Of a stretch of 10,551 bases of DNA, positions 1-3,000 are shown piece by piece. The stretch is from a virus. Lineage: Duplodnaviria > Heunggongvirae > Uroviricota > Caudoviricetes. The stretch lies in the IMG/VR virus record IMGVR_UViG_2585427761_000024, positions 1 to 10,551 of that record; one strand, given 5' to 3'. The first letter of the stretch is position 1, and each line of letters opens with the position of its first letter. Made by a program: the position numbers.

Positions 1-3000
1 CCCCGGAATAACAGTTATGCCAGCGGGACGGTAACCGTCACAGTTTACGATGACCAGGGCTTCGACCGGCAGATTATCATTCCCCCGGTGCTGTTTCGCG
101 GGACGAAACACCAGAATTTCAACAGCCCGAATCAGCAGTCGTACTGGTATTCCACCTGTAAGCTGCAGGTGCTGAAGAACGGGGTTGAGATTTTCCATGA
201 ACCGGCAACGGATGTCAGCCGGGTGTTCTCATCGGTGATAGATATGCCGGCAGGGCGGGGTCATGTCACCCTGACGTTTAATGTGTCGTCGGCCGGTGCG
301 AACAACTGGACGCCGACAACGTACATCAGTGATTTACTGGTTGTGGTCATGAAAAAATCCACGGCAGGGATCAGTATCAGCTGACGGTTTATTAACCCGG
401 ACGGGCACCTCAGGAGGTGCCTTTTTTATTGACTGAAAACAAAGAGGTAATCATGCGGCATTTATACGCAACGATATTATTGTTTACTACCCTGCTGGCA
501 GGAATTGCCTTTCCTGCACAGGCTGAAAGCGGACACGGTGCATTTTCCGTGGGATATGCTCAGGTTCACCCGGGCGGCGTACCGGCATTGTCCGGTACCG
601 GTGCGCGTGCAGGTGATTTAAAAGGGATTAATGTGAAATACCGTTATGAGTTCACGGATCACCTGGGCGGCATTGTCGCGCTGAGTTATGCATCGGTGAA
701 GAAAAGTGACACGATGAAGACGGGTGAAAATACCTTCCATTATGAAAGCCTGCGCGGTCGTTATGTCAGTCTGATGGCCGGCCCTGTCTGGCAGCTCAGT
801 GAGCGGGTCAGTCTCTATGGCATGGCCGGGATGGCGTACACCCGCTGGTCTGACAGTGTTCAGGATTACCGGCGTGATGAAGTGAAACCGGGGTATGTGA
901 AGGAGACCACCACCGCCAGTGATGGTCATACTGCGCGTCATCTGTCGCCGGCCTGGAATGCCGGGATTCAGTTCAGTCCCGTAGAGACGGTGGTTATTGA
1001 CCTTGCTTATGAAGGTTCCGGCAGTGGCGACTGGCGCACTGACGGTTTCATCGTGGGTGTCGGCTATAAATTCTGATTAGCCAGGTAACACAGTGTTATG
1101 ACAGCCCGCCGGTTCAGGCGGGCTTTTTTGTGGGGTGAATATGGCAGTAAAGATTTCAGGTGTACTGAAAGACGGCACAGGAAAACCGGTAGAGAACTGC
1201 ACCATTCAACTGAAAGCCAGACGTAACAGCGCCACGGTGGTGGTGAACACGGTGGCCTCTGAAAACCCGGATGAAGCCGGTCGTTACAGCATGGAGGTGG
1301 AGTATGGTCAGTACAGCGTGATTCTGTTGGTGGAGGGATTTCCTCCGTCACATGCCGGGAGCATCACCGTGTATGAAGATTCTCAACCCGGTACGCTGAA
1401 TGATTTTCTCGGTGCCATGTCGGAGGATGACGTCCGGCCGGAGGCACTGCGTCGTTTTGAACTGATGGTGGAAGAAGCGGCGCGTCACGCCGGGGAGGCG
1501 AAGAAGAATGCCGGAGAAGCAGAGACGTCCGCGAGGAATGCCGGCATATCAGCCAGTAAGGCGGAAGCGAGCGCCGCAAATGCTGATACTTCAGCAGGGG
1601 ATGCATCGGAGTCAGCCCGACAGGCGGCAGAAAGTGCAGCCTCAGCAAAGCAGTCAGAGGATGCGTCCTCGTCCTCGGCTTCTGCGGCCGCTCAAAAAGC
1701 CAGTGAGTCATCACAAAGTGCAGCAGATGCTGAATTGTCAAGAAAGACGGCAGAAAGTGCAGCCGGTAATGCAGCCAGGGATGCAACGACCGCAGCAGAA
1801 AAAGCCCGGGAGTCAGCAGAAAGCGCACAGTCAGCGGAACAAAGCAGGATAGCGGCGGAAGACGCCGTAAACCGAATCCCCACCGTGGTGGGACCTCCCG
1901 GGCCAAAGGGGGAACAGGGGCCCGCTGGCCCTCAGGGGCCGAAGGGGGATAAGGGAGAGCGTGGTGACACCGGCCCTGTCGGGGCAACCGGCGAACGGGG
2001 ACCGGCAGGTGATGCTGGTCCGGCAGGACCACAGGGACCGAAAGGCGACAGGGGAGAGCGGGGAGAGACCGGTCTGACGGGAAATGCAGGTCCACAGGGT
2101 CCAAAGGGAGATACCGGTGCGGCAGGCCCGGCTGGCCCACAGGGACCGAAAGGAGAAACAGGTGCGGCTGGCCCGGTGGGGGCAACCGGACCTCAGGGGC
2201 CGAAGGGCGACCCGGGGGAGACGCAAATACGGTTCCGTCTGGGGCCGGGAAACATTATTGAGACAAACAGCCATGGCTGGTTCCCGGATACAGATGGCGC
2301 ACTCATCACCGGACTGACCTTTCTTGACCCCAAAGATGCCACACGGGTTCAGGGGTTTTTTCAGCATTTGCAGGTCAGGTTTGGTGACGGGCCGTGGCAG
2401 GATGTCAAGGGGCTGGATGAAGTGGGCAGTGATACAGGCAGAACAGGAGAATGACATGAACATACTAAAAAAACTTATGCAGCGTCTGTGCGGGCACGGA
2501 AAGCATGATGGCCGTGAACACGGGGGGGTACTTACAGCACAACTGCGTCTGGGGCCGGCAGACATCCTGGAGTCCGATGAGAATGGTATTATTCCGGAGC
2601 AGGACAGGGTAATCACGCAGGTGGTGATACTGGATGCGGATAAAAAGCAGATACAGTGCGTGGTAAGACCGCTGCAAATCCTGCGTGCTGACGGGACGTG
2701 GGAAAATATTGGCGGAATGAAATAGCCGACAGCTTCACAAAAACCGGAGTCCGGCTCCGGTTTTTGTTGTCATGTCATGGTGATGTTTGTTAGTGAAGAC
2801 TTGAGGGAATATTTATCCGTATGAAGGAATATGGTAATGCCTGGATTAATATCATATGTGTCATCGGCTTCATTCGTGAATGAGATGATGGAGCTGCGTC
2901 AGCAGGTAATGGAGGGGCAGATTGGTGGATTTCTCCTGGGAGGGGAGAGGGTTAGAGTTTCTTATATGCCAGATACAGGCCGTTTTTTAGCAGAAGGTGA

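Follow-up and report, generated by a model that had tools for sequence, protein, structure and literature searches.

The closest described system is EPclA (ECs2717, Z0982), the collagen-like side tail fibre of O157:H7 prophages (Ghosh 2012, PLoS One 7:e37872, PMC3368898). It consists of a PfN domain, a 116-aa PCoil segment, a 111-aa collagen (Col) domain and a PfC domain at residues 363-426. The ECs2717 protein was characterized as a trimer with a true triple helix by AUC, SEC-MALLS, CD and EM, and the 111-aa Col domain is a true triple helix with a Tm of 42 C. The constructs rEPclA and Col-PfC, and the isolated PfC cloned over residues 363-426, trimerise in laboratory E. coli without a phage partner; Col-PfC refolds within minutes once heat-denatured (PMC3368898). 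The small gene downstream of the fibre is not discussed in that paper.

A second group of related systems is found in short-tailed Stx phages, where a lateral fibre gene is paired with a small PfC gene: ORF67/ORF68 (ECs1228/ECs1229) of Sp5, L0121/Z1484 of 933W (Z1484 in EDL933), gp61/'gp59' of phi24B and tfpS/atfT of AU5Stx1. Mondal et al. 2016 reported that the small ORF of 89 aa contains a 'phage fiber C-terminus domain' and is not essential, and they suggested it as a possible "reservoir" (PMC5155283). In Sp5, ORF68 is among the non-essential late genes and the fibre gene ORF67 is essential: plaque formation and lysogenisation are intact when ORF68 is deleted and not intact when the fibre gene is (PMC5155283). 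These deletions were scored on K-12 alone, where the O antigen is absent, and the term 'dispensable' may be host-specific. In GenBank the small gene of AU5Stx1 is labelled atfT, 'alternate tail fiber tip'.

The fibre/small-ORF pair has therefore already been described (Ghosh 2012; Mondal 2016), and in this respect the present analysis repeats published observations. Literature searches under the names of the small gene, its domain family and the EPcl fibres gave, apart from one array table and papers on general tools, just Ghosh 2012. The main text of a 2025 EHEC-phage paper does not report the small protein, and a 2026 phi24B structure paper lists the role of the collagen-like lateral fibres as an open question. 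What is added here is the approximately 1:1 linkage of the two genes, the movement of the cassette, the contrast in pN/pS, the trace of peptides in the accessible virion data and the finding of no fused fibre.

Small downstream genes are also familiar from other tail fibres. In the tip and Tfa cassettes of lambda (Stf/Tfa), P2, Mu and T4-like phages, a coupled small gene likewise moves with the C-terminal part of the fibre. Lambda-type fibres have a beta-structured shaft and tip, in contrast to the collagen shaft described below. A second copy of the coding sequence for the fibre C-terminus, located just downstream, is a feature of the Mu G and P1 C segments and of the Bordetella-phage diversity-generating retroelement (DGR).

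The fibre gene and the small PfC gene

The window is the whole stretch of 10,551 nucleotides analysed here (IMG/VR record IMGVR_UViG_2585427761_000024). It contains, with near certainty, the distal part of a lambdoid prophage of the EHEC/STEC type, inserted next to dusA in E. coli; the flanking dusA, pspG, qorA and dnaB have 99.9% identity to E. coli chromosomes. The features of the locus are as follows.

1141-2454, + strand: side tail fibre gene of EPclA type, 437 aa (ORF with PF08400, PF01391 and PF06820; stop at 2452-2454)
1141-1539, + strand: PfN, lambda-Stf-type N-terminal virion-attachment domain, residues 1-133 (PF08400, E 1.3e-68)
1543-1890, + strand: PCoil, Ala/Ser-rich trimeric coiled coil, residues ~135-250 (assigned from sequence)
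1891-2223, + strand: collagen triple-helix domain of 37 Gly-X-Y triplets, residues 251-361 (regular-expression count, PF01391)
1905-2775, + strand: mobile cassette of collagen, PfC, small ORF and terminator, common to short-tailed Stx phages
2227-2418, + strand: fibre PfC domain, putatively self-trimerising C-terminal knob, residues 363-426 (PF06820 Phage_fiber_C, E 3.2e-35)
2236-2262, + strand: direct repeat D5, copy 1, encoding RLGPGNIIE (81% identity over 27 nt)
2419-2451, + strand: conserved, near-invariant C-terminal tail of the fibre, overlapping the translation-initiation region of the small ORF
2445-2449, + strand: Shine-Dalgarno AGGAG, 6 nt 5' of the small-ORF ATG (from sequence; invariant junction)
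2456-2725, + strand: small PfC-only gene, 89 aa (PF06820, phrog_576, homologues)
2456-2536, + strand: N-terminal extension of the small protein, residues 1-27, with a predicted amphipathic helix at 3-11 followed by a Gly/His/Cys-rich linker
2537-2722, + strand: PfC domain of the small protein, residues 28-89 (PF06820)
2546-2572, + strand: direct repeat D5, copy 2, encoding RLGPADILE (same repeat analysis)
2737-2767, + strand: hairpin terminator at the end of the late operon and of the cassette (fold dG -25.5 kcal/mol, z -5.2; inside the conserved cassette block)

It is nearly certain that the genes at 1141-2454 and 2456-2725 form the known unit of an EPclA collagen-like side tail fibre and an 89-aa PfC-only protein. 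The assignment follows from the Pfam architecture, the published boundaries and length of EPclA, and the PGAP, PHROG and GenBank names; homologues of the fibre are named 'prophage tail fiber N-terminal domain-containing protein' by PGAP. The fibre carries PF08400, a PCoil segment of about 116 Ala/Ser-rich residues with a single unbroken collagen domain, and PF06820. Its 437-aa length and domain boundaries are those of EPclA (PMC3368898), both genes follow J and lom in lambdoid prophages, and the difference is allelic only, the best E. coli matches to positions 1000-2850 being about 96% identical. The PF08400 attachment domain is shared with lambda Stf, and residues 1-93 match the solved 'Tail fiber protein' chain 9e7m/9mgh in a PDB sequence search (E 5.8e-51). 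The layout given in the first-pass annotation, from the lambda-Stf N-terminus through the Ala/Ser-rich segment and collagen to a small C-terminal module, is retained, and its count of 36 triplets becomes 37, in one unbroken run.

The short-tailed Stx phage fibres are different. They are of the EPclB type, with 635-649 aa and two collagen segments with a Pf2 repeat between them, and they are attached to a podovirus tail via a different N-terminal part. In the window, by comparison, there is a single collagen domain and the cassette is joined to an N-terminus of the lambda-Stf type. The cassette itself (95.8% DNA identity) and the 1-nt junction are the same, and the small proteins are 91-97% identical.

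By analogy with the approximately 90%-identical ECs2717 protein, the window allele presumably forms trimers, in which the collagen part is a true triple helix and PfC trimerises by itself. In such fibres, as others have shown, PfN anchors the trimer on the tail, the shaft is made up of PCoil together with the collagen helix, and PfC, as an autonomous trimerisation knob, nucleates the collagen helix from its C-terminus. Since PfC self-trimerises, such a fibre would have no need of a Tfa-type chaperone, which would explain the missing tfa.

The junction of the two genes is compact. The fibre stop TGA (2452-2454) is followed by C at 2455 and by the small-ORF ATG at 2456, leaving a gap of 1 nt, and the 22-nt junction GGCAGAACAGGAGAATGACATG is the same in 82 of 83 related copies. 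The start behind its own AGGAG and the translational coupling suggested by the TGA-C-ATG layout agree with what had been noted from the sequence. The last 12 codons of the fibre contain no synonymous changes and just three nucleotide variants among the related loci.

The small gene is a stand-alone PfC: it encodes 89 aa, begins 1 nt past the stop of a PfC-ending fibre and is the last gene of the operon. It matches PF06820 with 123.3 bits (gathering cut-off 25; E 5.1e-36), residues 28-89 covering positions 1-64 of the 64-position profile, and phrog_576 over residues 1-89 of 89 (E 1.7e-58). The PHROG, Pfam and PGAP models all begin at its own ATG. Besides PF06820, no Pfam family matches 2456-2722 at E <= 0.01 and there is no NCBIfam match; thus nothing Tfa-like is present, and on this profile evidence the small ORF lies outside the Tfa families. 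It is a paralog of the end domain of the fibre, and the EPclA tip folds alone. The hairpin and then an NleG effector gene follow; the earlier statement that no tfa precedes the terminator holds. A simple terminator scan did not pick up the hairpin, which folding shows clearly, in our reading probably because the flanking A/T runs pair and lengthen the stem.

The similarity between the small ORF and the C-terminal module of the fibre, proposed in the first-pass annotation, is that of genuine paralogs. Both contain PF06820, and BLASTP aligns them with 34% identity over 62 residues (E 1e-10); the observed alignment score was reached by 0 of 2000 shuffles of the small protein. At the DNA level the two PfC copies are 51% identical, with mismatches spread over all base pairs and not specific for adenine. 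The best-conserved nucleotide stretch common to the paralogs is D5, with 13 perfect bases CGTCTGGGGCCGG. Its copies are 310 nt apart, and from the coordinates a deletion between them would join the fibre in frame to the PfC of the small ORF.

No solved PfC structure was found in PDB sequence searches, and the phi24B authors likewise obtained no confident AlphaFold model for the domain. Our AlphaFold2 monomer of the small protein, calculated from a 7-sequence alignment, is of low confidence (pLDDT 57, pTM 0.43); it has a helix at residues 3-11, residues 10-24 are low-confidence, and Foldseek of this model against the PDB gave no match below E 0.69. A PfC profile search of 1.84 billion representative proteins returned just 84 matches, nearly all E. 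coli-type fragments, and consequently the PfC alignment cannot be deepened.

Linkage and selection in the cassette

The small ORF and the fibre PfC occur together almost without exception. There are 296 phage records with the small ORF and 296 with the fibre PfC, and in IMG/VR the corresponding numbers of loci are 283 and 284. Where enough downstream DNA is available, a full small ORF lies 3' of the fibre PfC in 71 of 73 cases. The expected conservation and linkage is borne out in every related phage sampled, with small-ORF homologues 91-98% identical across the 296 phage records.

The segment 1905-2775 is the sole block of nucleotide homology (95.8%) with the EPclB fibre loci of AU5Stx1 (L081), L055 and L041. 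Comparison of these sequences indicates that collagen, PfC, small ORF and terminator are exchanged as a unit among phages with long and with short tails. Of the complete E. coli genomes, 13% carry this cassette, with a median of 11 copies in each, and it is present on essentially all short-tailed Stx phages, which spread Shiga toxin genes. The small paralog is its most conserved and least studied part.

The PfC of the small ORF is under stronger purifying selection than that of the fibre. Among related loci its pN/pS is 0.053 (pS 0.13), compared with 0.25 for the fibre PfC at similar pS; for residues 1-27 of the small protein the value is 0.42, a looser constraint than in the PfC part. The fibre PfC is variable at about 14 positions and the small protein barely varies. 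This pattern would be equally compatible with contact to a conserved PfC core and with a separate target that is itself conserved.

Role of the small protein

Additional information comes from the accessible part of the phi24B virion proteome, in which two peptides are unique to the small protein, with about 3 PSMs for each versus 2267 for the fibre gp61. The small ORF is therefore translated, as had been supposed. After length correction, its roughly 6 PSMs correspond to a few per cent of equimolar to gp61, and Lom (23 PSMs) and Q (19) are at a similar, contaminant-like level. The word 'trace' is an estimate rather than a measured stoichiometry, and the preparation had been six months in storage.

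The explanation that we favour, tentatively and with slightly less than even confidence, is that the small protein of this known EPclA and 89-aa unit acts via PfC-PfC contacts and is present on virions in traces. The small ORF is best taken as coding for an accessory that the phage can do without. The small gene would be translated on its own via termination-reinitiation coupling, and its product would fold as a second PfC knob, with a short amphipathic helix and then a flexible linker in front. Strong selection at the protein level would maintain it as a constant passenger of the collagen-PfC cassette. In the infected cell it likely acts on the C-terminal end of the fibre through putative contacts of the PfC-PfC type, where it would help or police the folding of the tip or prevent knob-mediated clumping. 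It would remain on virions in traces, as in the accessible data, and would be no tip subunit in stoichiometric amounts, but no silent spare part either.

Three lines of evidence point in this direction. The invariant junction, the low pN/pS and the two unique peptides argue that the small protein is translated separately and has a function of its own. The phage-record, IMG/VR and downstream-ORF counts, together with a cassette common to siphovirus- and podovirus-type fibres, tie it to the fibre C-terminus. The non-essential ORF68 of Sp5 (PMC5155283) and the small share of PSMs in the accessible proteome indicate that it is dispensable and sub-stoichiometric. The small protein is more strongly constrained than the fibre knob, yet K-12 infection proceeds without it and, as far as these data extend, virions contain hardly any of it; its role should therefore be sought in fibre biogenesis or on natural hosts rather than in the structure of the virion.

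It is a more doubtful proposition that the 89-aa protein is a new tail-fibre accessory, a free-standing knob paralog acting in trans and filling the Tfa niche by an unrelated mechanism. If this is true, it may act transiently as a template or a check when collagen-like fibres nucleate at their C-termini; alternatively, as a soluble knob, it may engage a conserved surface structure of natural, O-antigen-bearing hosts. Either would have a bearing on the function of the conserved lateral fibres in Stx phages.

Other explanations and recombination at the locus

Mondal et al. 2016 proposed a reservoir or alternate tip (PMC5155283): the small ORF would be a spare C-terminal cassette that replaces the fibre PfC by recombination and alters receptor specificity. 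We consider this unlikely. The D5 repeats would allow the in-frame deletion described above, the median of 11 cassette copies per genome provides many recombination substrates, and two chimeric ORFs exist in the databases, P0121 (small-ORF N-terminus with the fibre PfC C-terminus) and P0060 (collagen with the small-ORF PfC). P0060, however, is located at the extreme end of a draft contig of 3.3 kb (base 4) and was treated as a possible assembly artefact rather than a natural alternate tip. The fused junction was seen 0 times in IMG/VR and JGI metagenomes, compared with at least 161 normal junctions (at least 119 and at least 42, respectively). Among the best 120 of 176 matches none exceeds 131 aa, and no full-length fibre with a small-ORF-type tip appears among them. 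For the roughly 7000 loci in complete E. coli genomes, a 100-nt chimeric query told nothing about the number of fused fibres, since a normal locus also comes back, as two joined pieces. A swap by deletion would also go one way only, and the low pN/pS, the invariant Shine-Dalgarno and start, and the peptides in the accessible proteome indicate that the free-standing protein is itself selected. The alternative tip suggested in the first-pass annotation is thus an idea already in the literature and GenBank, and it gains nothing from the junction counts.

It is quite improbable that a trimer of the small protein is bound at each fibre end as a stoichiometric tip, a real adhesin or cap like some proteins of the Tfa/gp38 type. 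The gene does occupy the tfa position and moves with the C-terminal cassette of the fibre, its peptides occur in purified phi24B virions in the accessible data, and a distant fibre (P0143) has four PfC-like domains in series, which shows that PfC knobs can stack. The PSMs, however, are near those of the contaminants, and in Sp5 plaque formation and lysogenisation stay intact without ORF68 but not without the fibre (PMC5155283).

A low probability is also assigned to a free soluble knob, a purely inferential proposal in which a small-protein trimer off the virion would be freed at lysis and attach to some conserved structure of the host surface. In this way it might condition that surface, or mask the receptors that debris and sibling lysogens carry. 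Dispensability in laboratory plaque and lysogeny assays (PMC5155283) and the trace level in the accessible virion data would be in keeping with this. The near-invariant sequence, set against a varying fibre knob, is also what a different, conserved ligand would lead one to expect. However, the small protein has neither a signal peptide nor a known ligand, and the proposal leaves unexplained why the gene was never found away from a PfC fibre.

The role of a required trimerisation or assembly chaperone replacing Tfa, which the first-pass annotation had raised, is very unlikely; 'required' is already largely refuted by the dispensability of Sp5 ORF68 (PMC5155283) and by the trimers of rEPclA, Col-PfC and Trx-PfC/PfC formed without the small protein, Col-PfC even refolding after melting (PMC3368898). 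What speaks for it is the gene position with translational coupling, the strict linkage to the fibre PfC, and the behaviour of recombinant proteins, PfC alone being unexpressed without a thioredoxin fusion and rEPclB aggregating heavily (PMC3368898). Against it, the small protein has no similarity to Tfa families. A helper role in place of a required one is the version retained in the favoured explanation.

The least credible explanation is a programmed frameshift or bypass giving a fibre-small-ORF fusion, and hence two fibre isoforms from one mRNA, for which one can cite the +1 frame of the small ORF, open from 2318, and the fibre stop UGA-C, a weak termination context. The phi24B authors put hypothetical fusions (Fusion_6159_FS1/FS2) in their search database, but no junction peptides are found in the accessible virion proteome; by inspection no slippery sequence lies at or before the stop, as Mondal et al. 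2016 also found (PMC5155283), GAA-UGA-C cannot re-pair in +1, the first PfC would not survive a shift made before the stop, and the small ORF has its own Shine-Dalgarno and ATG, where the profile models begin.

Two recombination systems with a downstream copy of the fibre C-terminus were compared with the locus and rejected. A diversity-generating retroelement of the Bordetella-phage kind does not fit, there being no reverse transcriptase among the window ORFs and the copies differing in about half of their nucleotides, with mismatches at all base pairs. A Gin/Cin-type invertible segment, as in Mu G and P1 C, is different in that both copies here are on the + strand; there is no invertase ORF and the sole inverted repeat is weak (14 of 18 nt). 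The prophage integrase is the only recombinase of the window. Besides D5, direct repeats D1 and D2 are located in the collagen region and the degenerate direct repeats D3, D4 and D6 in the PCoil region.

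The fibre gene and its paralog

The window covers the right end of an Escherichia coli lambdoid prophage, in which Lom is followed by the fibre gene, the small ORF and a terminator. The features are as follows.

88-384, C-terminus of the J tip protein (PF12421)
417-1076, Lom
1141-2454 (+), fibre gene, ATG at 1141, 437 aa
Fibre residues 1-133, PF08400
Fibre residues 251-361, collagen run of 37 uninterrupted Gly-X-Y triplets
Fibre residues 363-426, PF06820 (Phage_fiber_C, PfC)
1905-2775, cassette of collagen, PfC, small ORF and terminator
2456-2725 (+), small ORF, 89 aa
2737-2767, strong hairpin after the small ORF
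2831-4834, three tandem NleG type-III effector genes (PF06416, E 1e-43 to 4e-47)
4995-5243 (-), DinI-like gene
5305-6402 (-), tyrosine integrase (PF00589)
6491-7528 (+), dusA, its 5' end directly adjoining the integrase gene

The first-pass annotation had described the small ORF as a paralog of the fibre C-terminal module, coupled to the fibre gene and not accompanied by Tfa. This observation is correct, since the ORF, domain, junction, alignment, hairpin and Tfa checks all hold. The final 62 residues of the small protein match PF06820 (E 5e-36), and pairwise alignment of the two PfC copies gives 34% identity (E 1e-10), a score reached by none of 2000 shuffles. The fibre stop occupies 2452-2454 and the small-ORF ATG lies at 2456, behind AGGAG at 2445-2449. 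Searches of Pfam and NCBIfam families found no Tfa-like sequence after the fibre. The run of perfect Gly-X-Y triplets was also confirmed, with the count corrected from 36 to 37. Codon 14 of the small ORF (2495-2497) is His (LCGHGK) and in most homologues Cys (LCGCGK); otherwise their linkers often contain a Cys-Gly-Cys motif.

Both genes are already known. The fibre is EPclA, present in eight or nine prophages per O157:H7 reference genome, and its published layout agrees with that of the window in every domain boundary: a 437-aa protein in which PCoil takes up 116 aa, collagen 111 aa, and PfC spans residues 363-426 (Ghosh et al. 2012, PMC3368898). PGAP names the fibre "prophage tail fiber N-terminal domain-containing protein" and the small protein "phage tail fiber C-terminal domain-containing protein"; the latter has its own PHROGs family of 89 positions, and its gene is called atfT, "alternate tail fiber tip", in GenBank record KU977419. 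The linkage, cassette, selection, translation, swap-hypothesis and family-breadth results are added here to the published work.

Because the integrase gene directly adjoins the 5' end of dusA, this gene is the apparent integration site of the prophage. The chromosomal genes after the integrase (dusA, pspG, qorA and dnaB) match E. coli chromosomes, including those of strains from swine and bovine sources, at 99.9% identity. The NleG genes are cargo between the cassette terminator and the prophage end. After lom and ahead of the fibre start codon, at 1103-1124, a G+C-rich hairpin with a T run resembles a terminator; expression of the fibre cassette would accordingly need antiterminated late transcription or its own promoter, and no promoter-like site was found on the plus strand at 1000-2900. 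Long ORFs at 1364-2185 (-), 1831-2616 (-) and 1508-1852 (+) overlap the collagen and Ala/Ser-rich repeats on the opposite strand or in another frame; they were rejected as genes and regarded as by-products of biased repetitive codons.

Linkage and the mobile cassette

The small ORF proved to be closely linked to the fibre PfC in relatives, as had been proposed for checking. Each occurs in 296 records of the GenBank phage collection, with the same organism breakdown, and in IMG/VR they occupy 283 and 284 loci, respectively. Of 83 copies of the small ORF examined, 82 share the same 22-nt junction and begin 1 nt past the stop of a PfC-ending ORF; the remaining copy has a 1-nt deletion. Where a fibre PfC locus has enough downstream DNA, a full small ORF follows in 71 of 73 cases. 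Among 5426 complete E. coli genomes, 698 carry the unit of PfC and small ORF, with 7016 occurrences in all (median 11 per genome).

The only DNA homology of the window with the podovirus EPclB loci, which encode longer collagen fibres, is the segment 1905-2775 (95.8% identity). Collagen, PfC, small ORF and terminator thus travel as a single unit, as do the fibre-tip and tfa cassettes of other phages. A weak inverted repeat, 2442-2459/2770-2787, brackets the small ORF and terminator, and its right-hand copy falls where the cassette homology stops, at 2775. The two arms match at 14 of 18 nt and include a perfect 9-nt core, ATGACATGA/TCATGTCAT; for a region of this size, chance alone is expected to give a 9-mer match. 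Several related prophages contain decayed third copies of small-ORF-like sequence (72-91% identity over 23-53 residues), which follow the intact small ORF at a distance of 0.7-1.4 kb and stand just before the nleG genes: L067 4942-5100, L069 4348-4494, L078 4955-5101, L004 5436-5504 and L011 5048-5116. These copies resemble remnants of cassettes inserted earlier; the window has none.

Role of the small protein

The small protein had been proposed as an assembly partner in place of Tfa, and a need for such a partner is contradicted by published experiments. Recombinant EPclA is a dumbbell-shaped trimer whose collagen domain forms a genuine triple helix (Tm 42 C), and isolated PfC is trimeric; Col-PfC refolds immediately after melting, indicating that PfC nucleates the collagen helix (PMC3368898). 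The absence of Tfa is thus explained by a collagen fibre with a self-trimerising knob, which assembles, and even refolds, unaided.

Among about 50 distinct alleles, pN/pS is 0.053 (pS 0.13) for the PfC part of the small ORF, 0.42 for its N-terminal 27 residues and 0.25 for the fibre PfC. The small protein is therefore selected as a protein, more strictly than the fibre knob, which counts against a silent spare part or relic.

The small protein is also made. Two unique peptides, VITQVVILDADKK and ADGTWENIGGMK, appear in the supplementary proteome of a 2026 phi24B cryo-EM preprint, with about 3 PSMs each against 2267 for the fibre, gp61. According to this proteome it is a trace component of that preparation, at a level like that of the contaminants Lom and Q. 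The preprint neither resolves nor models the fibre C-terminal knob, argues against BamA binding by the collagen-like lateral fibres, and names their function as an open question. Genes with no known function in the Stx2 phage Sp5, where the small gene is ORF68, were deleted in frame by Mondal et al. 2016 (PMC5155283).

The data fit a small protein that is functionally tied to the collagen-PfC cassette, dispensable in laboratory assays on K-12 and not a stoichiometric part of the virion. These three properties favour a dispensable accessory, which would act on the C-terminal end of the fibre inside the infected cell. The data also fit a separately translated PfC knob, for which a low-confidence model gives a short amphipathic helix at the N-terminus and then a flexible linker; a soluble free knob is less likely, as is a stoichiometric cap in view of the trace level. 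The remaining interest lies in the function of such a very widespread and strongly conserved protein.

Tip exchange and breadth of the PfC family

A direct repeat of 27 nt, with 13 perfect bases, occurs in both paralogs; its copies are 310 nt apart, and deletion between them would keep the frame. The suggestion of an alternative tip nevertheless found no support: IMG/VR and the JGI metagenomes contain no match to the predicted fused junction, versus at least 119 and at least 42 normal small-ORF junctions, and no relative of the small protein exceeds 131 aa among the 120 matches listed of 176. A recombination reservoir is likewise a less likely role, given the strict selection. Frameshift fusion of fibre and small ORF is also less likely.

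Two chimeric database ORFs, P0121 and P0060, were found, the latter at a contig end. In these two and in P0010, P0027, P0064 and P0082 the small-ORF PfC is fused to an unrelated N-terminus (Lom, DUF1983, collagen or the fibre PfC itself), which suggests that this multi-copy cassette is often rearranged, or else gives rise to assembly chimeras.

Of 1.84 billion representative proteins, a PfC profile search retrieved only 84, and almost all of these are E. coli-type fragments. P0143 (565 aa, from the representative-protein library) is a distant collagen-containing fibre in which four tandem PfC-like repeats precede the collagen segment; the repeats share 35-50% identity with the C-terminal half of the small-ORF PfC domain. 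Modules of this kind can thus occur in series and at positions other than the C-terminus.
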